64,000 nucleotides of DNA from Bacillota bacterium (GCA_015059495.1 SVAI01000001.1:1055811-1119810), one strand, 5' to 3'; shown: positions 16,850 through 43,282, counted from the stretch's first letter. Program-made: numbers and translations. The notes: a model not told the origin generated them from the letters alone.

Positions 16850-18052
16850 TTATTTCACCTTCCTTGCTGTATTAAAATTATATATATCAAATAATTCTAC
16901 TTCTGCTTCTTGCATAAATAATACGTTTTTAATATTATTATCTTTTAAATATGATTCTAAATCTAAAATACCATCTTTAAACTTACCATATCTTAAATTA
17001 ACTACGTATGTATTCTTATAATTACTAGCTAATAAATAATCTACTTGCCATGCTAAAGAATCACTAATAATTAATAAATTATCATTTGATTTAGTTTTAT
17101 TATTTGTATAAATAACTTCATCGTATTGTCCATCAAAATAACCAACATAGTAATCATAAAAATCATTATTTTCTTTATAATTAAATGTTAATGGCTTAAA
17201 TTTTTTATCTTTTATATTAACTTCTAAAGTACCATCCTCTAAATAATTAGGTTTTATAATAGCTCCAAAGTGATCTTCAATGGTTTTAGATAATAAACTC
17301 TTAGCCATAGATCCATAATACAAAGAATATAAATCTTTTTCATATAAATCTTCTTCATCTATGTCTTTATCTATTTCTAAAAGATTTAATAAATCAATGT
17401 ATGCTTTTTTAGCTCCAACAGGATTTAAATGATGATCTGTTTTATAAAAATATCTATCGTATTCTTCAATATCATTTGCTTCTAATGCATCAATCTTAAA
17501 TCTGGAGTCAATCTTATTTCTAAATTCTTGATATTTATTATATATACCGTTAATATTTGTAAATGAATTTATTTCGTATCTAAGAGGCATATACATATAA
17601 AAGTTAACATCTTGATACTTATTAACTAGATTATTATAAAATTCTAATTGATTATTTAATCTCTTATCTAATTCATCTGAATTATAATTATTAACTATAT
17701 AGTAACGATAATAATTATCTGACTTATAAAATATTTTTTCGTTATCACTATTATTCTTTAAATATATATCTTTTAAATATAAACTATCTATATCAATAAT
17801 AGAATTATAATAAATACTATTTATATTTTGATATAAAGGAAAATAGTTATTAATTCTATTTTCAATGTTAGTTTCTAGACTCATTATCTTATCATATATT
17901 GGATCATTACTCTTCTCAACAACCTTCCAGTTATCTCCTTTATAAAAATCAATAACATGTAATGTTATTAATCCAGTTTTTACTACTACAAAAATAAGTA
18001 CAAAAAAAATAATAAATATAAATGTTTTACTTAATAAACTTAGTTTTTTCAT
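16850..18052 (-). CDS. AlgJ/PatB/DltD-like extracytoplasmic acyltransferase partner (DHHW family)
   Basis: N-terminal TM; TDHHLNPVGA matches the DHHW signature of AlgJ/PatB; 2-nt gap from the MBOAT gene. Confidence 0.55.
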   Translation of the reverse strand: MKKLSLLSKTFIFIIFFVLIFVVVKTGLITLHVIDFYKGDNWKVVEKSNDPIYDKIMSLETNIENRINNYFPLYQNINSIYYNSIIDIDSLYLKDIYLKNNSDNEKIFYKSDNYYRYYIVNNYNSDELDKRLNNQLEFYNNLVNKYQDVNFYMYMPLRYEINSFTNINGIYNKYQEFRNKIDSRFKIDALEANDIEEYDRYFYKTDHHLNPVGAKKAYIDLLNLLEIDKDIDEEDLYEKDLYSLYYGSMAKSLLSKTIEDHFGAIIKPNYLEDGTLEVNIKDKKFKPLTFNYKENNDFYDYYVGYFDGQYDEVIYTNNKTKSNDNLLIISDSLAWQVDYLLASNYKNTYVVNLRYGKFKDGILDLESYLKDNNIKNVLFMQEAEVELFDIYNFNTARKVK

Positions 18053-22080: not shown

Positions 22081-22483
22081 TAATATAGAAATGCCTAAAA
22101 CTAATAAGGAAGAAAATATCATTGAAGAATCTAAAGAAATGGTAAAAAAAGATGTTAAAACTTTTAAAATATTCTTTAAAGATGTTAAAGAATATCTAAC
22201 ATCTAGAAATACTAATGAACTAGGTGAACTTGTATGGAGATTAGTTTTAATAGCTTTAGTAGTTATTGCACTATATGTACCATTCCAATTATTTAGAGAT
22301 TTAGGTATTAATATTTTAATATCTGTAGGTATAAATTTTAGTGATAAAACACTAAATATGTATAACTCAATATTTAATATTATGTATTCAATATTTGGTA
22401 TAGTTTTATTCTTTGTATTATGCAAAGATAGATTCTATAAAATAGTTAAAAATCAAGAAGAAATAAAGCAAAAACAAAATTAG
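22073..22483 (+). CDS. Hypothetical small membrane protein (2 TM)
   Basis: Overlaps the preceding gene by 8 nt (coupled); 136 aa. Confidence 0.35.
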   Translation: MNDNIEMPKTNKEENIIEESKEMVKKDVKTFKIFFKDVKEYLTSRNTNELGELVWRLVLIALVVIALYVPFQLFRDLGINILISVGINFSDKTLNMYNSIFNIMYSIFGIVLFFVLCKDRFYKIVKNQEEIKQKQN

Positions 22484-26161: not shown

Positions 26162-27727
26162 ATGAGTGAACTAGATAAAATACTTAAGAAAGCAGAAAAA
26201 GAACATGATACTTTAAAACATCCATATGTAGGTACTGAACATTTATTATTAGCATTACTTTCATATGATAATGAACTAACAGATTATTTAAAAGAATTTA
26301 ATTTAACTTATAATAAATTTAAAAGAAAATTAATAAATGTAATCGGAGAAGGTACAAAAAAGTCTGCTTATGTTCTTTATACACCTATGCTAAGAAAGGT
26401 TTTAAAAACTGCTAAAGATAATACTGATGAAATAACTTCAATAGATTTATTTAATTCTCTGTTAAATTCAAAAGAGGGTATAGCAATACGTTTACTAGAA
26501 GAATTAAATATTGATGTTGATAATATTGAATTTATTAACAACGAAGAAATAAAAATTACAAATAGAGATGAAGAAATTAACGAGATCTTTCAAATACTTA
26601 TGAGAAAGAATAAATGTAACCCATTGTTAATAGGAGATGCTGGAGTAGGTAAAACTGCAATAGTAGAAGAAGTAGAAAGAAGATTAAAGCATAACGAAGT
26701 ACCAACAAGCTTAATGGGATATAAAATAAAAAAAGTTGATCTATCATCAATACTAGCAGGTACTAAATATCGAGGAGATTTTGAAGATAAAATAAATAAA
26801 TTATTAACATCTATTGAAAACAAAAAGACTATTATATTTATAGATGAAATACATACTCTAGTAAATGCAGGTGGAGCAGAAGGAGCTATATCAGCAAGTG
26901 ATATCTTTAAACCATACCTAGCAAGAGGCAAAATAAAGTGCATCGGAGCAACAACCAATAAAGAATATAACGAATACTTTAAAACAGATGAAGCACTAAA
27001 CCGTAGATTTCAACAAGTAATAATTGATGAACCGGATAATAATAAAACTTTATCTATTTTAAAATCACTAAAAAAAGAATATGAAAAGTATCATAAAGTA
27101 TCAATAGATAATAATGTGTTAAATGAAATTATATACATATCATCAAAATATATAACTAATAAAAAGAATCCAGATAAATCAATTGAACTATTAGATTCCG
27201 TATGTACTAATGCAAGATTTAAAGAACAAAATAAAGTAAAAATGGATAATTTATACGATGTATTTAAATCTAGATATAAACTAGATATATCTAATAAACA
27301 TATAAGAAATATATTAGATAAAAAAGAAATCTTGTTAGCAACTAAAGATTTATTAACAACTATTAACTGCTCAAATATAATTTATATTGATGGAAATGAT
27401 TACAAGAATGATGAAGATCTTCTTAAATTATATGGTAACATAAAATCTAAAGAAGATTATATACTTAAAAAGGCATTAGAAAACCCTGTTGGAGTAATAA
27501 CTATAACAAATTATAATTATAATGAAATATTAAAAGAATTTATATTAAAATTAACATCTAATAGAAATGTATTAGATAATTTTGGTAACAATATTAATTT
27601 TAATAACTATATTATTATCATGGAAAAAACATCATCCAATAATTCAATAGGATTTACTACAAATACTAGTCAAAATAGTGTAATATATAAGGAAATAAAG
27701 CAAAAAACACTACTACCTAGTATATAA
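26162..27727 (+). CDS. ClpC/ClpB-like AAA+ protein with Clp-N repeats and D1 domain only (no D2)
   Basis: Clp_N repeats (HPYVGTEHLLLALL; second repeat around PMLRKVLKTAKD); D1 Walker A GDAGVGKTA, Walker B IIFIDEIHTL, sensor GATTNKEY..NRRF; C-terminal about 170 aa lacks any second Walker A. Confidence 0.55.
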   Translation: MSELDKILKKAEKEHDTLKHPYVGTEHLLLALLSYDNELTDYLKEFNLTYNKFKRKLINVIGEGTKKSAYVLYTPMLRKVLKTAKDNTDEITSIDLFNSLLNSKEGIAIRLLEELNIDVDNIEFINNEEIKITNRDEEINEIFQILMRKNKCNPLLIGDAGVGKTAIVEEVERRLKHNEVPTSLMGYKIKKVDLSSILAGTKYRGDFEDKINKLLTSIENKKTIIFIDEIHTLVNAGGAEGAISASDIFKPYLARGKIKCIGATTNKEYNEYFKTDEALNRRFQQVIIDEPDNNKTLSILKSLKKEYEKYHKVSIDNNVLNEIIYISSKYITNKKNPDKSIELLDSVCTNARFKEQNKVKMDNLYDVFKSRYKLDISNKHIRNILDKKEILLATKDLLTTINCSNIIYIDGNDYKNDEDLLKLYGNIKSKEDYILKKALENPVGVITITNYNYNEILKEFILKLTSNRNVLDNFGNNINFNNYIIIMEKTSSNNSIGFTTNTSQNSVIYKEIKQKTLLPSI

Positions 27728-29749: not shown

Positions 29750-29783
29750 ACAAAAAAAGATAGGAATAAATCCTATCTTTTAT
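29750..29783. terminator. Bidirectional terminator
   Basis: aaaaaaagataggaataaatcctatctttt palindrome between convergent genes. Confidence 0.55.
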
Positions 29784-31921
29784 TATTTATCATATAGATT
29801 TTCTTCTGTTGCAGTTCCTCTAGTTTTACCAGTTGGTGTCCAACCATCTAAACTTGGCTCACTGCTCCATTTGTATTCATATGTAGTAGATGTACTAGTT
29901 ACAGGTATTGGATCAGCACATTCTAGTGAGTGCTTAATACACTTATCTTTATCTAGAATATAACCATCTGGACAACTATAACCTTTTAATCCACCTTTAA
30001 TTGTTTTAATACATTTATCATCAACTAATTGTTCTTCAGCACTTTCACAATAATATGTAGTCTTATCTTCAACATAGATAGAACACTTAGTATTTTCTCC
30101 TTCTCCTTCTTTCTTATAACCAGTAGGACATTCATAAGCATATGTCTTCTTAGTTGTAGGAGTAGTATATTGATAACATGTAGTTCCTTCTCTTACATAA
30201 CCAGTAGGACATGTATATTGAGTTTCAGAAGTATGTGGAGTAGCTGGTTCTGATTTAATACATTGAGTTCCACTCATTGTATAACCAACAGGACAACTAT
30301 AACTTGTACTTGAATTATAAGTTGAATTAACAGTTCTTGTACATGTATTATTACTATTAATATTATATCCAACAGGACAACTATAACTTGTAGTTCCTGG
30401 AGTAGTAGAACAATTCTTATTAGCATATTCATAACATGTAGATGAAGATTGAGTTCTACCATCATTACATGTGTAATATGAACTTGATGTACTAGATGGT
30501 CTAGTCATATAACATGTAGAACCATTTCTATTACCTTGAGGACAATTGTAATTTGTTATAGCAGTATATGTACAATATGTATATGTACATCCTCTAGCAG
30601 TACAATTTTGACCTGTTTTAACTCTCTTAGATGAACTATTTTCATATTCAGATAATTGTCTAGATGAAGTTGTACAACTTGGATTAGACCAAGATCTTGT
30701 AGCGTTAGCAGCTTTAGTACATTGACTTCCACTTGGACTCCATCCACTAGGACAATTACCATAGTTTGTAGATCCTGCATGATATGAACCAGTATAAGTT
30801 CTTACACAGTTTCCACCATTATCTCTATATCCATAAGGACAATTACATGTAGTAGAACCACTTGTAGTTGTTCTAGTAGCATTAACAGTACTTGTACATC
30901 TTAATTGATCAGCACTGATTGTATATCCACTAGGACAAGTATAACTACCAGTCTTATGTTCAATTCTTTGAGTAGTAGCAATACATGATGTACCACTTAA
31001 TGTATATCCACTAGGACATTCATAAGTAGTAGTACCAGGTATTACAGTAGCATTTACATATTTATAACAAATGTTACCATTCTTTGTATATCCTTCAGGA
31101 CATACATCTTCACTTGAAACTTCAATTTTTTTAGCTTCAGCATATTTAGTATATCCACCACTCTTATTTTCTTTAGCATCAGTAGTTTGTACTACATCAT
31201 CAAAGTAAAGTGGAGTAGCAGGAATTGTTTCTCCTGTTTCATACTTATAACATACATTATTATCTTTAACATAACCTTCAGGGCAAGTATAAGTAGTGCT
31301 AGTCTTAGTTATAGCTCTCTTATATTCATATTCAACATTTCCACCCTTATCGTATTTAGAATCACCACTATTAATGATACTTGCATCTATTTCAATCCCA
31401 TCATCTTCATCTTTATCATTTTCAGATTTATCTTTAGATTGATTGTTTGAAGTAGATGAACCATTATCTTTTGATTCTCTATTATTATTTGAACTAGTAC
31501 TTGCAGTAGTTGTATTTAATGTTTCTAAAACATAATCAGTTTTATCATCACAAGATAATTGTACTTTTAAAACATAATTATTATTCTCAGTTTTAGTAAC
31601 TTGAGCAAATGAATTAGTAGTACTACATTCATTATTATCTTTATCAGTAAATTCTGTTATTAATTTCTTATCTAACATATCTTGTAGCTTAATAGTATTT
31701 GAACTACCAGTTTTGCTAGGTAAGTTTTCATTAACAAAATACTTTTCAGCTACATCCTTCATATTATTTAAATTTTCATTATAAACTCTATTATAAAATG
31801 TATCTAATTTAGGAATAGGGAATAACCAAATAAATACTAATATTAATAATATTACAGCAATTAATTTAAGTATTAATCCCTTCCAATCAATTTTAATTTT
31901 AACATTATCCTCATAATACAT
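29783..31921 (-). CDS. Bitopic surface protein with S/T/N-rich linker and 13 tandem CPxGY-x(5-10)-C two-cysteine repeats
   Basis: 712 aa; N-terminal TM ILKLIAVILLILVFIWLF; repeats such as CPEGYVKDNNVCYKY, CPSGYTLSGTSC, CPVGYTMSGTQC, CPTGYVREGTTCYQY; third gene of a minus-strand operon. Confidence 0.5.
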   Translation of the reverse strand: MYYEDNVKIKIDWKGLILKLIAVILLILVFIWLFPIPKLDTFYNRVYNENLNNMKDVAEKYFVNENLPSKTGSSNTIKLQDMLDKKLITEFTDKDNNECSTTNSFAQVTKTENNNYVLKVQLSCDDKTDYVLETLNTTTASTSSNNNRESKDNGSSTSNNQSKDKSENDKDEDDGIEIDASIINSGDSKYDKGGNVEYEYKRAITKTSTTYTCPEGYVKDNNVCYKYETGETIPATPLYFDDVVQTTDAKENKSGGYTKYAEAKKIEVSSEDVCPEGYTKNGNICYKYVNATVIPGTTTYECPSGYTLSGTSCIATTQRIEHKTGSYTCPSGYTISADQLRCTSTVNATRTTTSGSTTCNCPYGYRDNGGNCVRTYTGSYHAGSTNYGNCPSGWSPSGSQCTKAANATRSWSNPSCTTSSRQLSEYENSSSKRVKTGQNCTARGCTYTYCTYTAITNYNCPQGNRNGSTCYMTRPSSTSSSYYTCNDGRTQSSSTCYEYANKNCSTTPGTTSYSCPVGYNINSNNTCTRTVNSTYNSSTSYSCPVGYTMSGTQCIKSEPATPHTSETQYTCPTGYVREGTTCYQYTTPTTKKTYAYECPTGYKKEGEGENTKCSIYVEDKTTYYCESAEEQLVDDKCIKTIKGGLKGYSCPDGYILDKDKCIKHSLECADPIPVTSTSTTYEYKWSSEPSLDGWTPTGKTRGTATEENLYDK

Positions 31922-31932
31922 ATAAATACCCC

Positions 31933-33027
31933 CTATCTAGATCTCTTTCCAAGGATGTCTTCAAATCCTTCATTTACTTTTTGGAATGGAACTGTACCAT
32001 CATAAGATGATATCCATTTAGTTTCTTCTATATTTTCACTCTTACTGAATAAATTATCTACAGCATCAGGACAATATAATCCATCTTGTTCTATTTCATA
32101 TGTTCCACCATTATCAATAATATCTTGTCCGTTATAACCGTAATATAAATCTATACCTTCAGCATCAAGTGTGTGATTCTTTTGATGTTTTCTAGCATTA
32201 ATCATATTACCTGTATTTCTATATTGTTCGTATTGTTCTCTAGCCCAATCAATATATACAACATATTTATTGTATTGTGGAATTGCAGTTCTATAATCTA
32301 AGAAATTCTTAACTATATAATTATATAAATCATTTGCGCTTGCATAATCTGTAGAACCATTAAAGTTCTTTAAGTTATATGATAATTTTTCTCCTTCTTC
32401 CATTATAGTTCTCATATAAGTTCCTTCTGGAATAAGGCTGCTTAAATTTGGTTCTATACCATGTGTAACACAAGATTTATAATAATCAGCTATTATTTCA
32501 TCAAACATCGCTTGAGAATTAATTGAAGACTCAATACCTTTTTGGGTTTCATCAAACATGTTTATGAAATTAACAAAATTAATTACATCTTCTTTTGATT
32601 GGAAACTTTCAGCAAATTCTCCATATTTATTTCTATATTCAACTATTTGATTAAAGAATGCATCAACATTAGAATAATCTAATTCTTCATCACTAAAATC
32701 AAATTCAGCAGTTGTATTAGTGCTTTCTATTGTAGAAGCAATTTCTTCTTCGATAGTAGGTTGAATAACTGTTTCAGTATCTTCAATAATTGTAGAATCA
32801 CTGCTTATATTTTCCTCATTATTTTCATCTGATTTATTAGCTGCATGATGATAACCAAGAGCACATATAACTAAGGCTGTACCAATAGCTATACGACAAA
32901 TAGATTTCTTCATTTCTTCATCAGAATCAAGTTTATCATATTCTTCTTCGTTTATTACTTTATGAACTTTTTCGTCGGTATTGTCATAACTAGACTCAAA
33001 TTCTTTATCTAATTTCCATTTTCTCAT
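31933..33027 (-). CDS. Hypothetical bitopic membrane protein (short acidic cytoplasmic N-terminus, about 300-aa extracytoplasmic domain)
   Basis: 364 aa; TM ICRIAIGTALVICALGY; 11-nt gap from flanking genes (operon). Confidence 0.4.
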   Translation of the reverse strand: MRKWKLDKEFESSYDNTDEKVHKVINEEEYDKLDSDEEMKKSICRIAIGTALVICALGYHHAANKSDENNEENISSDSTIIEDTETVIQPTIEEEIASTIESTNTTAEFDFSDEELDYSNVDAFFNQIVEYRNKYGEFAESFQSKEDVINFVNFINMFDETQKGIESSINSQAMFDEIIADYYKSCVTHGIEPNLSSLIPEGTYMRTIMEEGEKLSYNLKNFNGSTDYASANDLYNYIVKNFLDYRTAIPQYNKYVVYIDWAREQYEQYRNTGNMINARKHQKNHTLDAEGIDLYYGYNGQDIIDNGGTYEIEQDGLYCPDAVDNLFSKSENIEETKWISSYDGTVPFQKVNEGFEDILGKRSR

Positions 33028-33038
33028 GCTATCACCTC

Positions 33039-34658
33039 TTATCCTAATGTTCTAACGTTTTCGTTATCTAAAGCGTTTATTCTTAATTGCATAATGTAAG
33101 AATTATCATATGGTTTAACCTTATTATATACTTTTTTAGCATTTTCTCTTACTTCCGCTGGAACACTATTAAGTTCATTTTGGTATTCAGAACCTTCTAA
33201 ACCGTTTTCTTCAGCACATCCTGAAGCAATTAGCATTGAACTATATCCAGTTACTTGATCAGTAATAGCACTTAGATTCCATATAGCTGCGTAATCATCA
33301 GGTGATAAGTAATCAACAGCGCTATTAATTGCATTATAAGCATTATTTTCATCATCGTAAGAATTATTATTTTGATCTATAGCTTTAGTAGATAAGAATA
33401 ATGTGTTCATTACTTGATATGAATCAAGATTTTCGAAGAACATTGATGTATCAATTCCATTATTATATAATACTTGGAATAATTCATAAGCAGTTTCACC
33501 ACTTAATATAGTATTGTCTCTTGTATATCTAACTAATGCTTCAATAGTTTCACGATTAAACATATCTTTAACTACTGGATCACTTATTTTAGAAATTTCA
33601 CTTTCAATTTTATCGACTGTTTCATATATAACAGTATCACTATTAACATCTAATTCGACTTCATATGGTTCTTCTTCGATTGTTGAAACTTGTTCAGTTA
33701 TTTCTTCCTCAACTTCAGTATCATCATCAATAGAGTTAATCATATTAGTGGCTATAGAATTTTTATCTATACCATTTTCTTCTAAAATAGATTCTGCTCT
33801 CTTAGAAGAATTAGATGAATAGGTTAATATAGCAATTGCTAAAGCAGAAATACCTGCGACAGTTATGAAAGCTTTTGAACCTAAAGATGATAGCTTAACA
33901 GCAAATCTTTCTTTTTTATCTACTTCCTCAACTTTTTCAACCTTTTGAGGTTCTTCTTCAGTATCTTTAAAGATTGGTTTAATATTGTTATCATTTCCAT
34001 TATTTTTAGTATTATCATTATTTTTTTCAATCTTAATAACAGGATCAGTTTTTTCTTCGACTTTTGGTTCTTCTTTTACTTCTTTACTCACATCGTTATT
34101 TTTTTTGCTGTTTTTGATATCTATTATATCAATATCTCTATCCCCATCTTGATTTAATATATCTAAAAGTTCTTTTTTGATATCATCATCATCTTCTTTG
34201 ATATCATCATCATCTTCTTTATAATCATCAATAGTTTCTTGATTAGATTTAGTAGATAACTTACGTTCTAATTCATTAATGTATTCTTCTCTTTCGTCAT
34301 TTAATTTTCTTAAATCTTCATTCTCTTTAAGTAACTTATCTAATTGTTCAATAGATTGTAGATTGCTTTCATTTTCTTGACTTGATTTAGCCATTTCTTT
34401 ATCATATACAGCATCATATTCTGCTCTAGTTTCGCTATTAGATAAAACTTTTATAGCTTCCATAATAGCTGAGAAGTATTGATATTTCTCTTTTTCGCTT
34501 ACTTTCTCCATATTAGCATTGTTTCTTGAAATATCACCGGCAAACATAATTGCACTATTACCATTTCTAATAATTTCTTCAGTAGATGCATCTTTATTTA
34601 CACCTATCATTTCATAATAATTAATAAAAAAACCTTTATTATCATAATACTTTTCCAT
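33039..34658 (-). CDS. Membrane protein with N-terminal J-domain-like module lacking HPD, coiled coil, acidic repeats, TM and extracytoplasmic C-terminal domain
   Basis: YYEMIGVNKDASTEEI...AIMFAGD...YFSAIMEAIKVLSNSETRAEYD aligns with the DnaJ J-domain but HPD is AGD; DDDDIKEDDDDIK repeat; TM FITVAGISALAIAILTY. Confidence 0.4.
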   Translation of the reverse strand: MEKYYDNKGFFINYYEMIGVNKDASTEEIIRNGNSAIMFAGDISRNNANMEKVSEKEKYQYFSAIMEAIKVLSNSETRAEYDAVYDKEMAKSSQENESNLQSIEQLDKLLKENEDLRKLNDEREEYINELERKLSTKSNQETIDDYKEDDDDIKEDDDDIKKELLDILNQDGDRDIDIIDIKNSKKNNDVSKEVKEEPKVEEKTDPVIKIEKNNDNTKNNGNDNNIKPIFKDTEEEPQKVEKVEEVDKKERFAVKLSSLGSKAFITVAGISALAIAILTYSSNSSKRAESILEENGIDKNSIATNMINSIDDDTEVEEEITEQVSTIEEEPYEVELDVNSDTVIYETVDKIESEISKISDPVVKDMFNRETIEALVRYTRDNTILSGETAYELFQVLYNNGIDTSMFFENLDSYQVMNTLFLSTKAIDQNNNSYDDENNAYNAINSAVDYLSPDDYAAIWNLSAITDQVTGYSSMLIASGCAEENGLEGSEYQNELNSVPAEVRENAKKVYNKVKPYDNSYIMQLRINALDNENVRTLG

Positions 34659-34753
34659 ATTCCTTTACCCCCTATAACGAATGAATGTTTCATCCGTTTT
34701 TATTGGTTCTATATACTATCACTTGTCTATTTAAATGTCAAGTATAAGTTCGA

Positions 34754-34783
34754 TTGACATTTCGGCCATTTTTATGCTAAAAT
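34754..34783 (+). promoter_or_regulatory. Promoter of ssrA (tmRNA)
   Basis: TTGACA (34754-59), 18-nt spacer, TGcTAAAAT extended -10 (34775-83). Confidence 0.5.
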
Positions 34784-34798
34784 TAGGGCATAAATGGG

Positions 34799-35168
34799 GT
34801 AGCTTATTGGTTTCGACAAGCTAGTCTTATGATAGATGTTTGCAAGTAGTCCGATATGACTTAAAACTGTCAAATTAAAATTAAATGACAAAAATGAAAG
34901 CTCTTTCGGAGCATTCACTCCTGTATTTGCCTAATTAAAGGTTGGGAGTTCTCTATCTTAGGTTCACCTATAGCTTAAGAATAGGGATCATATTTATAGG
35001 TTATATATTATAATTGATTAGGTTATAATACGAATCTTACTAATCTTAGTTAAAGAGTAGGTGTGTGATAGCCGGCGCTTTAATGAAATAATAATTATCA
35101 CTAAACTTGTAGATGATGTCTAATCATATAGTTTGGACAGGAGTTCGATTCTCCTCTACTCCACCAAA
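34799..35168 (+). ncRNA. ssrA: Transfer-messenger RNA (tmRNA, SsrA)
   Basis: 5' GGGGTAGCTTATTGGTTTCGACA and 3' GGACAGGAGTTCGATTCTCCTCTACTCCACCA; acceptor stem GGGGTAG/CTACTCC with the G3:U wobble alanine determinant; T-arm GTTCGATTC; in-frame tag reading ...gac aaa aat gaa agc tct ttc gga gca ttc act cct gta ttt gcc TAA (34887-34934) gives (A)DKNESSFGAFTPVFA. Confidence 0.85.
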
Positions 35169-35263
35169 TTAAAAATAAAGACAAGAAATTGTCTTTTTTT
35201 ATTTCCAATAAATACCATAATTATTTACTATTCTTAAACCATAATATAATTAGGAGGTATATT

Positions 35264-35443
35264 ATGACTCAAAAGGAATTACTTTATTTAGAAGATGCAT
35301 ATAATCATGAAAAGAATATAATTGATATTTATAATAATTTAGAAATGGAAGTTGTAGAAGATTTCATGACAAAAGAATTAAAAAGACATGAACTAATGAA
35401 AAATAAAATAAAAAAATTACTGGAGATGAAAGCAAATGACTAG
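35264..35443 (+). CDS. Small helical protein, partner of CotF-like protein
   Basis: AGGAGG SD before ATG 35264 (ORF-track 35189 is an extension); overlaps the next gene by 8 nt. Confidence 0.4.
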   Translation: MTQKELLYLEDAYNHEKNIIDIYNNLEMEVVEDFMTKELKRHELMKNKIKKLLEMKAND

Positions 35444-35681
35444 TGAATTATTATTACAAAATTATCTTCTACTAGTTAAAAGTACAATAGAGGTATATGT
35501 TCATGGAACAATAGAATCTTCGAATAAAGAAGTAAGAGAAATACTTCATGATGGTTTAAATGAAACATTAAAACATCAAGAAAATGTGTATAACGAACTA
35601 GTTAATAACAACTATTATGTAGTTGATAATATTAACTCTAGTGCTATAAATAAAGTAATAAATAAACTAAACAAGGACTAA
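35436..35681 (+). CDS. Spore coat protein F (CotF)-like domain protein
   Basis: LLVKSTIEVYVHGTIESSNKEVREILHDGLNETLKHQENVYNELVNNNYY resembles the Coat_F domain pattern. Confidence 0.45.
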   Translation: MTSELLLQNYLLLVKSTIEVYVHGTIESSNKEVREILHDGLNETLKHQENVYNELVNNNYYVVDNINSSAINKVINKLNKD

Positions 35682-35750
35682 TCCTTGTTTTAAATTTGCA
35701 TTTTTTAAAAAAAGTAGTATAATATCTAAGCATTAAAGAAGGGGTGTAAT

Positions 35751-36323
35751 ATGTACAAGTATTATTGTTATATAACTGAAAAAGGACCTATATACATTGT
35801 AAAGGAATTTGAGAAGGTAAATGGACAATTATTTCTAAAAAGAATGTTTGAATTTTATTCTCATGAACCAGTTGAAGAATACTATAATTATTTAATGTTT
35901 AATAAAGGAAATAAATACCTTAGATTTGGTGATTTTGAAATAGATAACGATGACTTTATTACTACTAACTCTCAAATAGTTGAATTAAGTTTATTTCAAC
36001 TAAGATGTATCACAAATGGTTATTTACATGAAGGTATTAATCCGGCTGAAGAAACAAAGAAAATAATTGAAAGTGGTATATCTAGAGAAGAAGCAGACGA
36101 AGCACTAAGAAGAAAATGGGAATCAAAGGTTAAATCTCAAGAAAATATAATTGCTAAAGAAAAAGAAGTGGCAGAAGTAGTAAAAAGATTAAAGAGAAGA
36201 AAAACAAATCATGAAATTGTTAGTAGAAGATCTAATACAAATACTACTGAGGAAGAAAAAAAATTAAAAACTTTTATGTACGTATTTGGAGATTTATTTG
36301 AAGAAGAAGAAATAAGATATTAA
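35751..36323 (+). CDS. Hypothetical protein with K/E-rich C-terminus
   Basis: 190 aa ORF with SD; no domain recognised. Confidence 0.35.
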   Translation: MYKYYCYITEKGPIYIVKEFEKVNGQLFLKRMFEFYSHEPVEEYYNYLMFNKGNKYLRFGDFEIDNDDFITTNSQIVELSLFQLRCITNGYLHEGINPAEETKKIIESGISREEADEALRRKWESKVKSQENIIAKEKEVAEVVKRLKRRKTNHEIVSRRSNTNTTEEEKKLKTFMYVFGDLFEEEEIRY

Positions 36324-36350
36324 AAAAACACTCTAACGAGTGTTTTTTAC
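36324..36350. terminator. Bidirectional terminator
   Basis: aaaaaacactctaacgagtgtttttt palindrome between convergent genes. Confidence 0.55.
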
Positions 36351-37568
36351 ATAACTATCATCTAAAACTTTATCAGATTCAACATTGACAGAAACTAATT
36401 TTACTTCATCATCAACAAATCTATAAATGTATACACCACCATCTTCTTTATTAGGTACATATTGCATTACATTACATACATAATTAGGATCACCTGCACC
36501 ACATGCGTATGAATAAGGTAAGAAACTTGTATCAGCAGGATTATCTAATACTTCTCTAGTAGTTTTACCTGTACCTGCTTCCATAGCAGCCATAACTTCA
36601 TAGAAATTACCATGACCTTTATTATAATATTCTAATATTGCAAACATGTTATCAGTATCTAATACATAAGCTGCATGAGCTAATATTATATTAATTGCAG
36701 CTATATTAGTAGGTGGATTAGTTAATTCTTTACTAGTAATAGTAATGTCAGCATTTTTATAATTTTCTGGTGTATCTGTAAATACAACAGTTATCCATTT
36801 ATTTTCATCATAATTATAAACTTTTAAAAGTTGTCCTTCCCATTCGGAGTGTTCTATTTGACCTTTATTACTACCTTTACCATGAGACTCTTGAGTATAT
36901 AATCCACATGCTACATATGGCGAAACACCATATTTTTTACCATATTTAATAAATTCATCTTTATATTCACTTTGAATATCTATTATTTCTTGTTCCATGG
37001 ATCTATCAACGATATCTAAAGATGCTGAAGGTATTACTTCTTGAACTACTTCTTCTTCAATTTTAGGTTCTTCTTGAATAGTTTCTTCAACAACATTATT
37101 TTCTTCTTTAATAGCTATTTGATTATCTATTTGTTCAAATTCGATACCTTCACTATATTTATTACTTAAATCTTCTTCTTTTAAATAAGTAGTAACTAAC
37201 ATACTAGCCATAACAATAGGTGCAACAACAACACCAACTTTACCGACTAAGTTATTACTAACTTTTTTACCTTTATGTTTCTTTTCCTGTATTTTTCTTT
37301 CATTTTCTTTTGCGGTTTTAATAGTATTATCTAAAAGATCTCTATATTTAGATAAAAAGAATTGAGTACAACCTTGAATTACTACATTATATCCGTGTTT
37401 ACTATTCTTAATAATAAGATTATTTCCTTTATTATATATCTTATTATTTTTAGTTTTATCAACTTCCTTTAAAAATTCAATAGCAAGATCTTGTTTAATT
37501 CGTTTGTTATTATTTCCATCTATACACAATAAGGAACCATCAAGTATTGTATAATATATATTATGCAA
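36333..37568 (-). CDS. Bitopic membrane protein with possible lytic-transglycosylase (SLT)-like extracytoplasmic domain
   Basis: 411 aa; TM VGKVGVVVAPIVMASMLVTTYL; YTQESHGKG and EYYNKGHGNF weakly resemble SLT ES... and AYNAG motifs. Confidence 0.3.
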   Translation of the reverse strand: MHNIYYTILDGSLLCIDGNNNKRIKQDLAIEFLKEVDKTKNNKIYNKGNNLIIKNSKHGYNVVIQGCTQFFLSKYRDLLDNTIKTAKENERKIQEKKHKGKKVSNNLVGKVGVVVAPIVMASMLVTTYLKEEDLSNKYSEGIEFEQIDNQIAIKEENNVVEETIQEEPKIEEEVVQEVIPSASLDIVDRSMEQEIIDIQSEYKDEFIKYGKKYGVSPYVACGLYTQESHGKGSNKGQIEHSEWEGQLLKVYNYDENKWITVVFTDTPENYKNADITITSKELTNPPTNIAAINIILAHAAYVLDTDNMFAILEYYNKGHGNFYEVMAAMEAGTGKTTREVLDNPADTSFLPYSYACGAGDPNYVCNVMQYVPNKEDGGVYIYRFVDDEVKLVSVNVESDKVLDDSYVKNTR

Positions 37569-37797
37569 TGTTAAACGCCTCCTTTAGTTTATCTAATAAA
37601 CTATTATCAATTTCTTTTAAGATAATTTTATTATCTACTATTTCATATTCACTAATATACATATTATCTTTATCAGCATATAGTACATAATATTTACCAT
37701 CTACTTCTTTAGAATCAATATATTCATAAGTCTTGCCATCTATTTTTATTTCAAAAGGATTCATAAATACACTTCCTATTCTGATAATATTATACAT
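37561..37797 (-). CDS. Small hypothetical protein, translationally coupled upstream of the SLT-like gene
   Basis: 78 aa; stop overlaps the downstream start (8-nt overlap). Confidence 0.3.
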   Translation of the reverse strand: MYNIIRIGSVFMNPFEIKIDGKTYEYIDSKEVDGKYYVLYADKDNMYISEYEIVDNKIILKEIDNSLLDKLKEAFNIA

Positions 37798-37889
37798 TAT
37801 AATTGTCCATTTTACACTACAAGTGTATAATTACTTTACATTATTAATATAAACATTTATACTTAATAATAGATAGGGAGGTATTAAAT

Positions 37890-38174
37890 ATGGCATTAAC
37901 TTATAGAGAACCAGACTATACTATTACACTAGAAAACTATACTGAAGAAAATGAAAAGTATCATACAGAGCAAATTAGATCTGTTCATTCAGTTGAAAAA
38001 GGATGGTTTGTTGGTGAACCAGAAAGAATAACTAGATCTGACGGTTCAGTTACATTAGTTTATGATTTACAAAAGTTTGATTCTGAAGAAGAAGCACGTC
38101 AAGAATATGCTAAAAATGGTATAGATTTAGATAAAGCAAAAGAAATTCAACAATTCCAAGGATATTCTAGATAG
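37890..38174 (+). CDS. Hypothetical small acidic protein
   Basis: 94 aa; GGGAGG SD. Confidence 0.35.
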   Translation: MALTYREPDYTITLENYTEENEKYHTEQIRSVHSVEKGWFVGEPERITRSDGSVTLVYDLQKFDSEEEARQEYAKNGIDLDKAKEIQQFQGYSR

Positions 38175-38235
38175 GATATCTTTTTTGCTTTATTTAACTT
38201 TAAGTGATATAATTTAATTACTTAAGGGGTGCGCT

Positions 38236-38946
38236 ATGAGAGTTTATGTGAAGAAAATAAATGATTATTTATTTGCTAAGGGTAAAGTCTTTGCAAAAGG
38301 TTTTTGTAAGGAAAAACTTTTCTTTATGTTCCTTTTTGGTTGTATCTTTGGTTGTGTATGGGAAGAACTACTAACTCTTATAGATACATACAAAAGATTT
38401 GGTGTACCAATATGGGAAACAAGAAGAGGAGTTTTATATGGAGAATTATCTCCAATATATGGCTTTGGATGTGTACTTTTACTAGTAATATTAATGCATA
38501 AAAAAAGAAACTTCTTTGAATACTTTGCTATAGGTGCATTAATAGGTGGAGTATATGAATACTTTATGTCATTCTTACAAGAAAAACTAACCGGAGCAGT
38601 ATCATGGGATTATTCAACATTAATGCTTAACATCAATGGTAGAACAACAATTCCATTCATGGCCTTCTGGGGATTACTTTCAGTAATATTCGTTTATGTA
38701 TTTTATCCACTCGTCTCGCACTTCATAGAAAAAATACCATATAACTTTGGTAGATTATTGTATCATGTACTAGTAGTTCTAGTAAGTTTAGATTTAGTAT
38801 TAACTTATGCAGCAGTTGCAAGACAAACACTAAGAAATGCTGGATATCCACCATATACACCAATAGGTAGGACTCTAGATAAATACTATCCAAACGAAAG
38901 AATTGCTAAAGCGTTTGTCAACGCACAATTTAAAGATAAAAATTAA
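38236..38946 (+). CDS. DUF1113/CmpB-like (putative ABC-transporter type IV) membrane protein
   Basis: LFGCIFGCVWEELLTLIDTYKRFGVPIWETRRGVLYGELSPIYGFGCVLLLVIL resembles the CmpB family; AAGGGG SD. Confidence 0.4.
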   Translation: MRVYVKKINDYLFAKGKVFAKGFCKEKLFFMFLFGCIFGCVWEELLTLIDTYKRFGVPIWETRRGVLYGELSPIYGFGCVLLLVILMHKKRNFFEYFAIGALIGGVYEYFMSFLQEKLTGAVSWDYSTLMLNINGRTTIPFMAFWGLLSVIFVYVFYPLVSHFIEKIPYNFGRLLYHVLVVLVSLDLVLTYAAVARQTLRNAGYPPYTPIGRTLDKYYPNERIAKAFVNAQFKDKN

Positions 38947-38966
38947 TAAAACAAATATAATTTAAT

Positions 38967-39599
38967 ATGAAAAAAATTATATTTGTTTTTTTATTATGTT
39001 TAATTTTAATTAATATTAATGTTAAAGGTTCACTATACTTATCAGGTAAATATATAATTATAGATCCCGGACATGGTTCAAAAGATAATGGTACATCATA
39101 TAACAATATTTTAGAAAAAGATTTAAATTTATCCATATCAAAGATATTAGAACAAGAATTAATAAAAAATGGGGCAAGCACAAACTTAGTCAGAGAAGAA
39201 GATTATGACTTATCTTCTCCTAATGCTAAACGAAGAAAAAGAAGTGATTTTAATAATCGAATAGATTTTATTAACAAGTCTAATGCTGATATCTATTTAT
39301 CAATACATATTAACTATTTAGAAAATAATAAGTATAGTGGCTCACAAGTATTTTATTATGGTGATAGTAATAAAGAATTAGCAAATACTATTCAAATGTA
39401 TTTAAACAAGATTAATACTCCTAGAAGTATTAAAGAAATGCCCAATGTATATATGTATAATAAATTAAATATAAAAGGAGTCTTAATAGAGTGTGGTTTT
39501 ATATCAAATATTAATGATAGAAATAACCTTATAAATAAAGATTATCAACAACTTTTAGCTAAGACCATAACAGATGCTTTAATAGATTATTTCACATAA
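38967..39599 (+). CDS. N-acetylmuramoyl-L-alanine amidase (Amidase_3, CwlD-like)
   Basis: Signal/TM; IIIDPGHGSKDNGTS, SIHINY, GVLIECGFISN zinc-amidase motifs. Confidence 0.7.
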   Translation: MKKIIFVFLLCLILININVKGSLYLSGKYIIIDPGHGSKDNGTSYNNILEKDLNLSISKILEQELIKNGASTNLVREEDYDLSSPNAKRRKRSDFNNRIDFINKSNADIYLSIHINYLENNKYSGSQVFYYGDSNKELANTIQMYLNKINTPRSIKEMPNVYMYNKLNIKGVLIECGFISNINDRNNLINKDYQQLLAKTITDALIDYFT

Positions 39600-39682
39600 T
39601 TTTCACATTATTTATATAAAAAAAACACTATAAAGGTATATCATTTAATTATCACATGTGGTATAATCTAACAGAATAGGTG

Positions 39683-40621
39683 ATGCATGTGGAAAAGACA
39701 TTTAAAACACTCGATGAGCAAGTATCCATATTAATTAAAAAGGGATTAATAATAAGTGATATCAACTATACTAAAGATGTTCTTTTAAGAGAGAACTACT
39801 TCTTTCTTATGGGTTATAGACACTTATTCTTCAAAAGTGAAAAGGATAGAGAATTCATTCCTGGAACTACTTTTGATGAACTATATTCAGTATTTAATTT
39901 TGATAGACGAATAAGAAATATCTTATTTAAAAATATCTTAATAGTAGAAAACAATGCTAAGAGTATATTTTCTTATCAATTATCTAAAAACTATGGATAT
40001 AGAGAAAAAGATTATATTAATCCAAGAAACTTTACTAAAGAAGCTAGTAGAAGAAGACAAGTAAATGATCTTTTAAAGAAAATGCAAAGACAAATAAGAA
40101 TCAATGGTGGACAACATAGTGCAACAATGCACTACTTAAGTAATTATGGTTACTTACCACTATGGATTGCAGTTAAAGTATTATCTTTTGGTATTGTATC
40201 TGAATTATTTACAATACTAAAACAAGAAGATCAACAAGCTATAGCACAAATATATGGAATACCAATTGATGATTTAATTCAATATTTTCCAATATTAGCA
40301 AATTATCGTAATCTATGTGCTCATGAAGATATTTTATTTGATCATAAATCTCAAAGAATAATTCAAGATACTAAATATCATAATTATTTGAATATTCCTA
40401 AAATGGATGGAGAATATATTTATGGTAAAGATGATCTATTTGCTTTAATAATAATATTAAAGAGAATTCTAAGAGATGAAAACTTCCATCAACTAATTCA
40501 AGAAATATCATATGAAATGGATATATTAAGCGGAAAACTTAAAACCATAACTATAGACAAAGTTATGGATATGATGGGATTCCCATCAAATTATAAAAAT
40601 ATACTAAGGACGGATTTATAA
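39683..40621 (+). CDS. Abi_2-family (AbiD/AbiF-like) abortive-infection-like protein
   Basis: Architecture and motifs (PLWIAVKVLSFGIVSELF, NYRNLCAHEDILFDHK) reminiscent of Pfam Abi_2; extended -10 TGgTATAAT at 39658-39667 just upstream. Confidence 0.5.
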   Translation: MHVEKTFKTLDEQVSILIKKGLIISDINYTKDVLLRENYFFLMGYRHLFFKSEKDREFIPGTTFDELYSVFNFDRRIRNILFKNILIVENNAKSIFSYQLSKNYGYREKDYINPRNFTKEASRRRQVNDLLKKMQRQIRINGGQHSATMHYLSNYGYLPLWIAVKVLSFGIVSELFTILKQEDQQAIAQIYGIPIDDLIQYFPILANYRNLCAHEDILFDHKSQRIIQDTKYHNYLNIPKMDGEYIYGKDDLFALIIILKRILRDENFHQLIQEISYEMDILSGKLKTITIDKVMDMMGFPSNYKNILRTDL

Positions 40622-42186: not shown

Positions 42187-43282
42187 ATGGAAATTGAATT
42201 ATTAGAAAATAAAATAAATGATTATGAAGATAAATTAAATACAATCAGGAGGTCTCTTTGACTTAGACAAAAAAGAAAGTGAAATAGCTTCACTTGAACA
42301 AGAAATGTCTAAGGATAACTTTTGGGATGATATAGATAATGCTAATAAGATTAATCAAAAGTTAACTAATTTAAAAAAGAGTATTTCTTCATACAAAAAA
42401 TTAAATGATATGGTATCAACAAGTAAAGAAATGATACCACTAATTAAAGAAACAAATGATAATGATTTATATAATGAAACATTAAATGAATTAAATGGCT
42501 TAGAATCAGAAATAAGTGAACTTGAATTATCAACATTATTAAATGGTGAATATGATAGTTTAAATTGTTTCTTAGAAATACATCCTGGAGCAGGTGGAAC
42601 TGAGTCATGTGACTTTGCATCAATGCTTTACCGTATGTATACAAGATTCTTTGAAAAGAATGATTATAAATATGATGTAATAGATTTTGAAAAAGGTGAA
42701 GAAGCTGGAGTAAAATCAGTTACCTTACTAGTTAAAGGGTTTTATCCATATGGATATTTAAAAAATGAAACAGGTGTACATCGTCTTGTTAGAATTTCAC
42801 CATTTGATTCAAATGCTAGACGTCATACATCATTTGCTTCTGTTATGGTAACACCAGAATTTGATAATAATATAACAATAGATATTAAAGAAACAGATTT
42901 AAAAATAGATGTGTATCATTCATCTGGTGCAGGTGGACAATCAGTAAATACATCAAATAGTGCTGTACGTATTACACACTTACCAACAAAAACAGTTGTA
43001 ACATGCCAAGTTGAAAGATCTCAACTTAAAAACAAAGAGATGGCAATGCAAATGCTTAAATCAAAACTGTTCCAACAAGAATTAGCTAAACAACAAGAAA
43101 AGTTAAGTGACGTTAAAGGTCAAACTATGGAAATTAACTTTGGTTCACAAATAAGAAACTATGTCTTAGAACCATATAGACTAGTTAAAGATTTAAGAAG
43201 TAATTATGAAACTTCTAATACCGATAAAGTATTAGATGGTGATATAATGCCTATAATAGAATCTCTATTAAAAAATAAATAA
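42187..43282 (+). CDS. prfB: Peptide chain release factor 2 (programmed +1 frameshift)
   Basis: Frame 0: ATG 42187...AGGAGG TCT CTT TGA (stop 42259-61); +1 frame from GAC 42260 continues to 43282; SPF (RISPFDS) and GGQ motifs present. Confidence 0.85.
42247..42262 (+). other. prfB autoregulatory +1 frameshift site (internal SD AGGAGG + CTT TGA C)
   Basis: Canonical RF2 frameshift window AGGAGGtctCTTTGAC. Confidence 0.8.

Follow-up and report, generated by a model that had tools for sequence, protein, structure and literature searches.

Several described systems come close to parts of the locus reported here. Minor pseudopilins and pilins (GspI/EpsI/XcpV; S. sanguinis PilA) and modular pilins (S. 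sanguinis PilB) are among the closest known to its largest protein, and pilins of the modular kind, with large modules grafted on, occur widely (PMC8179133). Their hallmark is a class III signal peptide, i.e.: a hydrophilic leader running to a Gly/Ala, then about 21 hydrophobic residues, with a Glu at +5 (IPR012902/Pfam N_methyl; PMC8179133). The cysteine-rich part of the same protein recalls two other groups. EGF-like and cEGF domains (Pfam PF12662, PF09064) are eukaryotic extracellular modules, and TraN, which stabilises mating pairs in F-type conjugation, is a cysteine-rich, beta-sheet-rich extracellular adhesin in which all cysteines are predicted to be disulfide-bonded (PMC9246713). A further parallel is offered by the chloroplast and cyanobacterial division proteins ARC6 and ZipN (Ftn2), which combine an N-terminal J-like domain lacking the canonical tripeptide with one TM helix. 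The J-like domain of ARC6 does not bind Hsp70, a precedent for such a domain without Hsp70 function, and the extracytoplasmic domain of ARC6 binds a second bitopic protein (PMC12232670); ZipN is described as a related FtsZ tether (PMC6391411).

The locus lies in a DNA stretch of 64,000 nt (hereafter the window), where three minus-strand ORFs of 539, 364 and 712 aa, named p1, p2 and p3, occupy positions 29783-34658. Our favoured reading, held tentatively and at a little short of even confidence, is that this operon encodes a vertically inherited envelope structure of RF39-type Bacilli: a membrane-anchored surface fibril together with its base complex.

A three-gene operon facing ssrA

From the start of the operon, p1 (33039-34658, minus strand) encodes a 539-aa bitopic protein belonging to a widely conserved partner family, 'X'; p2 (31933-33027, minus) a 364-aa bitopic protein of an orphan family; and p3 (29783-31921, minus) a 712-aa protein, anchored in the membrane, that combines a pilin-fold head with a cysteine-rich beta rod. 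Homologues were found for each of them, and we therefore take them as real genes rather than chance ORFs. The p1/p2 and p2/p3 gaps are 11 nt each, both with a Shine-Dalgarno-like motif, and read TAA-GAGGTGATAGC-ATG and TAG-GGGGTATTTAT-ATG. A promoter-like site (34713-34741, minus; TTGACA, 17 nt, TG-n-TAGTAT, an extended -10) precedes p1, with 10 of 12 consensus positions plus the TG matching in a consensus scan, as a pattern match only. The only terminator-like hairpin found on the operon strand lies just past the last operon stop codon (29755-29781); it is bidirectional, with an 11-bp stem followed by a T run on each strand, and is common to the operon and the convergent TspO gene. With a single predicted promoter and a single predicted terminator, p1, p2 and p3 form one putative transcription unit, and the consensus sigma-A-type character of the promoter suggests vegetative, constitutive expression.

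On the other side of a 137-nt spacer, ssrA (tmRNA; 34796-35166, plus strand; ARAGORN, and Rfam RF00023 at 125.6 bits) is transcribed divergently. The spacer holds back-to-back TTGACA/extended -10 promoter matches, that of ssrA being a pattern match at 34754-34783. Across relatives, a promoter-like TTGACA/TGnTAnnnT site that faces the partner gene lies within the short ssrA-partner spacer (40-266 nt) in about 19 of 29 loci (again pattern matches only). ssrA is a conserved divergent neighbour, outside the protein system.

Each protein has one strongly hydrophobic segment (p1 263-281, p2 42-60, p3 16-34) and no second. The sequence-only reading had described three co-oriented minus-strand genes with 11-nt gaps, divergent from ssrA, single-pass membrane proteins, and 13 cysteine repeats in the 712-aa product. 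ORF calls and ARAGORN/Rfam agree on the first point and hydropathy on the second, while counting gave exactly 13 C[PNE]xG...C motifs.

The pilin-like head and cysteine-rich rod of p3

The AF2 model of p3 (mean pLDDT 76) divides the protein into a TM helix, a head with a minor-pseudopilin fold, a predicted flexible linker of about 55 residues and a modelled beta rod of about 500 residues. In the pilin-like module (residues 13-135; 31517-31885, minus), the TM helix (13-33) is followed by an invariant Pro35 and a helix (39-61) packed on a beta sheet (74-135), which contains an invariant Cys99-Cys124 pair. The linker (residues 139-193; 31343-31507, minus) is a low-complexity S/N/D/K stretch with pLDDT below 50 and has the lowest conservation and column occupancy in the family. 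The rod (residues 196-702; 29816-31336, minus) is all-beta, mostly at pLDDT 75-94, consists of 13 CPxGY...C hairpin units and has a conserved stretch, YEYKWS...GWT.TGKT, at its C-terminal end. p3 belongs to a family of more than 211 homologues and is evenly conserved over its length, tip included.

p3 has 37 cysteines, and in most of the 13 motifs the Cys-Cys spacing is 11. The rod units, of the pattern Y-x-C-P-x-G-Y-x-x-x-G-x-x-C, resemble cEGF and EGF-like hairpins, with a Pfam cEGF match in 25 of the 34 family members (best E 3.8e-19). Unlike those eukaryotic modules, p3 is bacterial and membrane-anchored, and it repeats only the two-cysteine hairpin sub-motif. By sequence pattern, the rod is a series of 13 two-cysteine cEGF/TraN-like hairpins; from this similarity and the invariant cysteine pairs we infer that the cysteines are probably disulfide-bonded. 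The likeness to TraN is confined to the Cys-rich beta region: residues 182-677 align by tblastn to TraN of F-type plasmids of sphingomonads and Shewanella with 26-29% identity (E 1e-7 to 1e-13), and some p3 homologues have been named 'TraN' automatically by JGI. This similarity between repeated two-Cys hairpins may be partly compositional, and Pfam TraN was absent among the matches of p3 and its family at E up to 0.1. Moreover, TraN is an outer-membrane protein of diderms encoded within tra operons, between trbC and traF in the matching plasmids, whereas p3 is chromosomal, belongs to a monoderm, holds to the membrane through its N-terminal TM helix and pilin-like head, and has no conjugation genes nearby. 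We rejected p3 as a TraN given the missing family-model match and neighbours (ssrA, TspO, cysS and a ClpC-like gene) that are not those of a tra/trb operon.

By fold, the head of p3 is that of a pilin: its long N-terminal helix lies against an antiparallel beta sheet. The p3 of the window reads ...VKIK|IDWKG LILK..., with Lys at -1 and Gly at +5, so that both hallmarks of the class III signal are absent. Pfam N_methyl matched neither p3 nor any of the 34 family members, and NCBIfam gave no match of any kind for p3; as a positive control, the 651-aa ORF at 47577 of the window passes the N_methyl threshold and is a modular prepilin (MKNKG|FTLTE). Compared with this true pilin, the p3 head shows no significant sequence similarity (hhalign 1.6%; BLASTP E 0.01). 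Among 113 relatives, a Gly at -1 before I-N-W-K and a D/E five residues after that Gly are both present in 55, both missing in 54 and mixed in 4; because 55 relatives carry the pair, the prepilin signal is ambiguous for the family, while it is absent in the p3 of the window.

These data bear on an alternative in which p3 would belong, as a genuine though non-canonical minor (tip) pilin, to a type IV filament or Com-like pilus whose genes lie elsewhere in the genome, with the Cys-rich rod as a grafted module and p1 and p2 as loading or priming factors. The wide occurrence of pilins with large grafted modules (PMC8179133) lends it plausibility, as does the canonical prepilin in the same window, given which the organism probably has a prepilin peptidase and filament machinery. 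The almost perfect co-occurrence of G(-1) and D/E(+5) points the same way, although the 55/54 split may simply separate two clades, and it is set against the Lys at -1 and Gly at +5 of the window protein and the N_methyl and NCBIfam results. Genomic context argues against it as well: no assembly ATPase, platform protein or prepilin peptidase was found in the operon, among the scanned window ORFs of at least 300 aa or among the conserved neighbours of 80 loci, which separates the operon from minor and modular pilins linked to filament assembly genes. Canonical prepilins near p3 genes number five in about 1.3 Mb, by a rough estimate about the frequency expected by chance, and J-like partner proteins carrying helical ectodomains are not known from type IV filaments. 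We regard p3 as unlikely to be such a tip pilin.

Partner proteins and a candidate surface fibril

p1 is built of a J-like domain (residues 13-82; 34413-34622, minus), a coiled coil, an acidic disordered region, a TM helix (residues 263-281; 33816-33872, minus; AFITVAGISALAIAILTYS, best hydropathy window 1.94) and an all-alpha ectodomain (residues 340-536; 33051-33641, minus). The ectodomain is without a Pfam family, and structural comparison returned generic helical matches, nothing specific. p2 has a short cytoplasmic tail, a TM helix at residues 42-60, an acidic linker and an ectodomain at 105-364; it has no match in Pfam, NCBIfam, PHROG or PADLOC. Twelve homologues of p2 were retrieved by word index, and its family comprises only 32 representative clusters among 1.84 billion proteins. 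Both proteins are predicted to be N-in/C-out bitopic, the net charge of +4 on the N-flank of the p1 TM helix being consistent with an N-in orientation.

Residues 13-82 of p1 have the J-domain fold, and share it with DnaJ/Hsp40. However, the conserved His-Pro-Asp motif (helices II/III), needed to stimulate Hsp70, is absent in p1, in its 14 homologues and in the partner proteins of the other clades examined; one distant relative (L079) carries YPD. p1 also differs from DnaJ in being without the G/F region, zinc finger and client-binding domain. The idea of p1 as a canonical J-domain Hsp70 co-chaperone was discarded on the missing HPD and an NCBIfam DnaJ score far under the cut-off (28.7 vs 377 bits).

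The partner gene and p3 behave as a unit. Among the 39 loci with enough upstream sequence, 33 have a co-oriented gene at most 40 nt upstream of p3, usually 10-23 nt apart. The families of these upstream genes (c9, that of p1, c2, c17, c233, c175 and c155) are connected by HMM searches; in hhalign comparisons of ectodomains, the probability is 97% for c2-c17 and 85% for c17-c175/155, and the link of the p1 ectodomain to the other partner clades reaches only 70% (c9-c17). By contrast, p2 scores below 1% against partner families, except for a weak 39% match to the c31 family. p1-type and p2-type ectodomains are joined in two fusion proteins, P0164 and P0165, in the order TM, p1-ectodomain, p2-ectodomain (the p2 type being C-terminal), with i-E values of 4e-24 and 3e-39 for P0164 and 5e-32 and 4e-42 for P0165. 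A p3 orthologue (47% identity) follows the P0164 gene after 11 nt, beside gyrBA and with no ssrA nearby; the fused chain is always encoded immediately ahead of p3. Hence, as far as gene order tells, partner gene and p3 are kept together even where they have moved away from ssrA. The adjacency and the fusion back the initial proposal that the genes form one system, and likewise its description of them as lacking an enzymatic domain or described function: they encode three bitopic envelope proteins that would act as one functional unit.

The cytoplasmic part of p1 is less constant. Partners of the c17 family have the coiled coil and no J-like domain, P0164 and P0165 have 46-76 residues ahead of the TM helix, and in a CAG:956-like clade the upstream gene product has a Tat signal and no cytoplasmic domain, so this part may be dispensable in some clades. 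Such variation weighs against an explanation modelled on ARC6/ZipN-PDV2, namely that the module couples the two sides of the envelope in morphogenesis, division or sporulation: the J-like domain and coiled coil of p1 would bind a cytoplasmic scaffold and its ectodomain would position p2 and p3 outside the membrane. The layout of p1 does parallel that of ARC6 (PMC12232670), the genes belong to a single-copy core set with housekeeping-like conservation, and the genome has wall and sporulation-type genes. Yet the p1 ectodomain is an unrelated helical domain, and no sequence relation to ARC6 or ZipN extends beyond the generic J fold. In none of the loci is the operon linked to genes for division or sporulation, and a 500-residue extracellular rod would have no obvious task in such a device; we consider coupling of this kind distinctly improbable.

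In the fibril reading that we favour, the ectodomains of p1 and p2 would assemble close to the membrane into a complex by which the pilin-like foot of p3 is docked, folded or organised. The disulfide-stapled rod would cross the peptidoglycan layer and display its conserved tip beyond the wall, where it could touch other cells or a substrate, and the J-like domain and coiled coil of p1 would serve oligomerisation or localisation rather than Hsp70 activation. That a cell wall is present is indicated by the window, which has genes for a class A PBP, SpoIID, an M23/LysM peptidase and an Amidase_3 protein. Adhesins that bind variable host ligands do not usually have tips conserved this evenly, so the output may be something other than adhesion; the data suit a structural or spacer role for p3 just as well. 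A bolder version of this proposal, which we find doubtful, is that of a new, order-wide envelope apparatus of RF39-type Bacilli, where a pilin module outside any type IV context would be the foot of a disulfide-stapled EGF/TraN-like fibre standing on a dedicated two-ectodomain base; in some clades an HPD-less J-like/coiled-coil module would connect that base with the cytoplasm.

The guts of humans, ruminants and birds harbour RF39-type Bacilli in abundance; these bacteria have genomes of only about 1.2-1.7 Mb, and to our knowledge no member has been cultured. That such reduced genomes keep a large three-gene envelope module across the lineage makes it probable that the module matters to how these bacteria live, and the operon is a concrete, testable candidate for their main surface structure. 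It adds two ectodomain families without annotation (p1 type and p2 type), a pilin fold without a recognisable prepilin signal, which bears on the evolution and reuse of type IV pilin modules, and, as a rare case in a presumably strictly anaerobic gut bacterium, a heavily cysteine-rich extracellular protein. Should the bolder version hold, the apparatus would amount to a new class of surface organelle in monoderms, unlike the type IV filaments or TraN-type adhesins tested, and possibly to the main route by which these small-genome gut bacteria reach one another, their substrate or the host.

Conservation of the ssrA junction

The succession of ssrA, partner gene and p3 recurs in 28 other loci from uncultured gut and rumen Bacilli of RF39 type, across which p3 identity falls to about 28-34%. 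The same neighbourhood is found on contigs from several samples, among those listed, and an identical p2 on 16 contigs. At closer range, p3 diverges at the pace of the core genes around it, with 59% identity vs 59-63% for the neighbouring ClpC-like, TspO, SpoIID and M23 proteins. Operon GC (0.27-0.32) does not deviate from its surroundings (window range 0.19-0.36). Genomic islands at ssrA integrate at its 3' end, and the operon sits at the 5' (promoter) end. No att repeat of the ssrA 3' end was found within 7 kb downstream, and the ORF scan, which covered 14 kb on either side, showed no integrase. On these genomic comparisons, the operon is a vertically inherited core feature of the RF39-type lineage and not a mobile island at the tmRNA gene.

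This speaks against the initial view of the operon as the most accessory-looking block of the window: an acquisition at a tmRNA integration hotspot, serving phage exclusion or another strain-variable surface function, has in its favour the adjacency to ssrA, the lack of a housekeeping annotation and the gene content beyond ssrA, and is largely refuted and very improbable given the side, junction, composition and divergence described above. Comparison with known anti-phage defence and phage proteins left phage exclusion unsupported: PADLOC had no match to the operon proteins, p3 had no tblastn match in 50,697 phage records, and the lone PHROG match in the operon is a weak one (E 3e-4) of the p1 J-like region to a family of unknown function. 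A role at the spore surface, also suggested at first, found no support. Of the refuting outcome named at the outset, a conserved core cluster with a known function, one half holds: the operon is a conserved core cluster of its lineage, yet corresponds to no known function. For island calling, the case advises caution: adjacency to tmRNA is insufficient by itself, since the side of ssrA and the conservation of the junction in relatives decide. On the far (3') side of ssrA lie an Abi_2 gene and small unannotated genes, and that side varies between genomes.

Layout and transcription of the operon

The three minus-strand genes p1 (33039-34658, 539 aa), p2 (31933-33027, 364 aa) and p3 (29783-31921, 712 aa) probably encode a membrane-anchored modular surface protein, p3, with dedicated partners. 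As the sequence-only reading had described, they are co-oriented, separated by gaps of 11 nt (p1-p2 and p2-p3), and divergent from the plus-strand tmRNA gene ssrA (34796-35166; ARAGORN; Rfam 125.6 bits); in each gap a Shine-Dalgarno-like GAGGTG or GGGGT lies right before the ATG. All three products contain a single strongly hydrophobic segment, with no further candidate in any of them, which bears out the earlier description of all three as single-pass membrane proteins.

The 137-nt spacer between p1 and ssrA holds two back-to-back TTGACA/extended -10 promoter matches, one per direction, and a bidirectional terminator-like hairpin (29755-29781) stands directly after the p3 stop. This hairpin is the only one of its kind on the operon strand, and the signals fit a single transcription unit. 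A genome scan with the p3-homologue alignment (one genome per species, 185,579 species) returned at least 190 stretches with a relative, and 80 loci were retained. A match to a TTGACA-type sigma-A consensus promoter facing the partner gene recurs in about 19 of 29 loci, suggesting vegetative expression of the operon.

The p3 protein and its pilin-like head

In the AF2 model of p3 (113 sequences, mean pLDDT 76), a TM helix (residues 13-33) and an invariant Pro35 lead into a pilin-like head, or foot, in which a helix (39-61) packs on a sheet (74-135) holding an invariant Cys99-Cys124 pair. A disordered S/N/D/K linker (139-193) and an uninterrupted all-beta region (196-702) follow. Among the 37 cysteines are 13 C[PNE]xG...C motifs, exactly the number of repeats counted from the sequence alone, with a Cys-Cys spacing of mostly 11; these cysteines would form disulfides. 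Conservation is even along the protein and peaks in the head, in the repeats at either end of the series and in the C-terminal YEYKWS...GWT.TGKT region, and insertions and deletions sit in the middle repeats. Pfam cEGF recognises the repeats of 25 among 34 family members (best E 3.8e-19). The nearest relative of the rod is TraN: p3 residues 182-677 share 26-29% identity (E 1e-7 to 1e-13) with plasmid TraN genes of Sphingomonad and Shewanella, found inside tra operons. On donor cells TraN is a surface adhesin, rich in disulfides and beta sheet (PMC9246713); by the membership test, p3 is not a TraN protein. A PDB sequence-profile search with p3 gave only a zinc-finger match, a repeat-driven artefact.

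The fold of the head raises the possibility that p3 is a genuine though non-canonical pilin at the tip of a type IV filament. Type IV pilins are defined by a class III signal peptide (PMC8179133), and the window p3 lacks one, having Lys at -1 and Gly at +5. Neither p3 nor any of the 34 relatives scanned is matched by Pfam N_methyl, a test that works here because the same model passes on a true prepilin 16 kb away in the window; NCBIfam gives p3 no match of any sort, the similarity between the p3 head and that prepilin is not significant, and p3 falls outside the type IV pilins in the membership test. Two further observations favour the tip-pilin reading: the presence of that large, modular prepilin, and a motif carried by half of the p3 family. 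In 55 of the 113 members a Gly before I-N-W-K is combined with Asp/Glu at +5, 54 have neither and 4 are mixed, so that the two features go together almost without exception, the split falling in the columns of the family alignment that correspond to p3 residues 10 and 15; the window p3 belongs to the "neither" class. Judging from the N-termini at the loci, the Gly-Asp/Glu class apparently coincides with clades having a single partner gene (c2 and c17, two BLAST clusters of genes upstream of p3). The pair could be a relic or a divergent form of the prepilin signal in these clades, and could equally be a plain clade difference. On balance, we consider it unlikely that p3 is a tip pilin.

The prepilin itself (651 aa, 47577-49532, plus strand; Pfam N_methyl 25.3 bits, cut-off 21.2) has a textbook class III signal peptide, MKNKG/FTLTEIIAVIVILGILIA. 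It is an isolated gene, flanked by ftsH and by a 222-aa ORF that precedes parA/parB, and no filament assembly genes were found in the window. Its cysteine-rich C-terminus holds CSADCGGGSQSR, by eye resembling a thrombospondin type 1 repeat. Elsewhere, locus L047 (9962-18353) has two p3 paralogues of 605 and 610 aa and, 68 nt after the second, a canonical 518-aa prepilin (MKKNG/FTLVELLAIIAVL); L052 and L085 have canonical prepilins at most 3 kb from a p3-family gene. Canonical prepilins are not enriched near p3 genes: the 5 seen over some 1.3 Mb are close to the number expected by chance. We also considered comG-type competence-pilus operons around distant p3-like genes and rejected them: on reading the sequences, the conserved upstream genes encode a PfkB-type kinase, a small Smr-like protein, PPDK and XerC/D.

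Partner proteins and a proposed mechanism

In 33 of 39 loci, no more than 40 nt, and typically 10-23 nt, separate the p3 start from the end of a co-oriented gene. BLAST groups the genes in this position into clusters c9 (p1 with its relatives), c2, c17, c233, c175 and c155, which HMM searches interlink; in profile-profile comparison of the ectodomains, c2-c17 scored 97%, c17-c175/155 85% and c9-c17 70%. On these profile links we treat them as one family, X, represented in the window by p1. The p2 gene is restricted to the window's own clade (L006-L010, L021 and L026), where it lies between X and p3. Among 1.84 billion representative proteins, searched exhaustively by HMM, the p2 family amounts to only 32 clusters; p2 has no match in family libraries, nor among the sequences of solved structures in a PDB profile search.

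A link between the partners comes from two proteins among those 32 hits that combine a TM helix, a p1-type ectodomain and a p2-type ectodomain in a single polypeptide: P0164 (595 aa; i-E 4e-24 and 3e-39, respectively) and P0165 (574 aa; i-E 5e-32 and 4e-42). Such Rosetta-stone evidence indicates joint action of the p1 and p2 ectodomains at the outer membrane face. Only 11 nt separate the P0164 gene from a p3 orthologue (47% identity) downstream of it, beside gyrB/gyrA and with no ssrA nearby, so the module keeps its link to p3 on relocation. The adjacency seen in 33 of 39 loci and the ectodomain fusion uphold the earlier proposal that the three genes form one system and speak against independent genes. 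A paralogy of p1 and p2 was considered and rejected, as the motif they share by eye gave only 5% and 0.4% in hhalign; their relationship is one of fusion and co-occurrence rather than of detectable homology. Another database match to the p2-type ectodomain, P0163 (488 aa), has a C-terminal half that is almost the same as P0160, a p2-type ectodomain, behind an N-terminal half that is lipoprotein-like and, by eye, SusD-like; it is most likely a metagenome assembly chimera rather than a real architecture.

The predicted structure of p1 rests on 15 sequences. Ahead of the TM helix, p1 has a J-like region, then a long helix at residues 75-137, then a disordered stretch rich in acidic residues (138-260, 32% D+E); its ectodomain (340-536) is confidently all-alpha (pLDDT 85-94) and retrieved only generic helical bundles in a structural search. 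The HPD tripeptide is absent from p1, from all its homologues and from the X proteins of other clades, and p1 does not classify as a J-domain co-chaperone in the membership test. A precedent is the J-like domain of ARC6, which also lacks the canonical tripeptide and does not bind Hsp70 (PMC12232670). An ARC6-like device coupling the two sides of the envelope would be a rather improbable reading of the operon, given that the cytoplasmic module varies: c17 proteins have a coiled coil without the J-like domain, the fusion proteins have just 46-76 residues before the TM helix, and in the CAG:956-like clade the gene upstream of p3 encodes a Tat signal and no cytoplasmic domain. In this clade (L020, L022-L025 and L034) the protein encoded between ssrA and p3 is 320-417 aa long; that of L022 matches Pfam TAT_signal at 30.6 bits, and the other members have RR-type N-termini. 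This partner shows a weak hhalign link (39%) to the p2 ectodomain.

The constant elements are extracytoplasmic (partner ectodomains, p3 foot and rod). We therefore propose that p3 would be a membrane-anchored fibril, whose conserved tip is brought across the wall and out past it by the flexible linker and the disulfide-stapled rod. Near the membrane, the p1 and p2 ectodomains would form a base that docks, folds or organises the p3 foot. The J-like/coiled-coil part of p1, an addition that varies between lineages, would serve oligomerisation or placement and would not activate Hsp70. The output may be adhesion or a structural role. The modules of p3 and p1 each look like a known kind, p2 and the p1 ectodomain being orphan families, and no described system joins these parts. 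The operon is a lineage-wide, uncharacterised envelope system with several unusual features; that it builds a distinct surface organelle of RF39-type bacteria seems doubtful.

The ssrA junction, the host and neighbouring genes

The tmRNA gene was found by ARAGORN in 28 of the 80 loci (the window's own genome left out), and in all 28 it is divergent from, and directly upstream of, the partner gene preceding p3. Upstream sequence of 2.5 kb or more is available for 39 full-length p3 genes; 23 of them have a divergent ssrA 1.1-3.3 kb away, with p3 identity as low as about 28-34% in these loci. The operon lies on the 5' side of ssrA; the target of integrative elements is its 3' end. Its GC is unremarkable for the window, and p3 is as diverged from its L007 counterpart (59% identity) as neighbouring genes are (ClpC-like, TspO and SpoIID 59%, M23 63%). 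PADLOC models have no match in the operon, p3 has none in phage genomes, and PHROG gives a single weak match (E 3e-4, function unknown) on the p1 J-like region. We therefore reject the earlier view of an accessory block at a tmRNA integration hotspot, an island or defence block being highly improbable given the conserved 5' junction, normal GC, core-like divergence and lack of mobility genes and of informative phage or defence matches; the operon as a whole also falls outside ssrA islands in the membership test.

The variable flank of ssrA is the 3' one and not that of the operon: genes from 35189 to about 40600 have no counterpart in the related loci L007, L021 or L008. A repeat search found no att-like copy of the ssrA 3' end on that side. 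This flank (35189-40621) encodes an 84-aa ORF, a CotF-like 81-aa ORF and family-less ORFs of 190, 411, 78 and 94 aa, and continues with CmpB, Amidase_3 and Abi_2 genes. The 411-aa product (36333-37568, minus strand) is bitopic and built like p1 and p2, its cytoplasmic N-domain being followed by a TM helix, an acidic linker and then an ectodomain, which has a sub-threshold SLT lytic transglycosylase match (18.3 bits, cut-off 21.3).

GC is about 26% across the whole window, and identical copies of p1 and p2 occur on 0.7-1.26 Mb contigs of several metagenomes. The p3 relatives all come from uncultured gut or rumen Bacilli: 'Tenericutes', Mycoplasma sp. CAG:956 and CAG:472, Clostridium sp. CAG:628, CAG:433 and CAG:1193, and Candidatus Coprovivens, which belongs to GTDB order RF39 (PMC8035907). 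RF39 bacteria are predicted to be mostly walled (PMC10868615), and a literature search for RF39 and a cysteine-rich surface protein gave no hits. A peptidoglycan wall is expected in the source organism because the window encodes a class A PBP (23-1942), SpoIID (8135-8998), an M23/LysM/G5 peptidase (11560-13083), a CotF-like protein (35436-35681) and Amidase_3 (38967-39599). These wall- and sporulation-type genes are retained in a genome of about 1.25 Mb and 26% GC, of a lineage often labelled 'Tenericutes', and suggest that the organism is walled and possibly spore-forming.

Three ORFs, of 400 aa (16850-18052, minus), 605 aa (20263-22080, plus) and 136 aa (22073-22483, plus), have no Pfam family at E up to 1e-4. 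A 521-aa ClpC-like protein (26162-27727, plus) has two Clp_N repeats and one AAA module with its lid, without the second AAA module, and is kept in L007 and L021 at 59-62% identity. A second release-factor gene (42305-43282, plus; 325 aa, PCRF and RF-1 domains) has a Pfam match beginning at profile position 12 and, in the gene calls of the same genome, a 41-aa ORF immediately upstream; the two are probably the usual prfB +1 frameshift.
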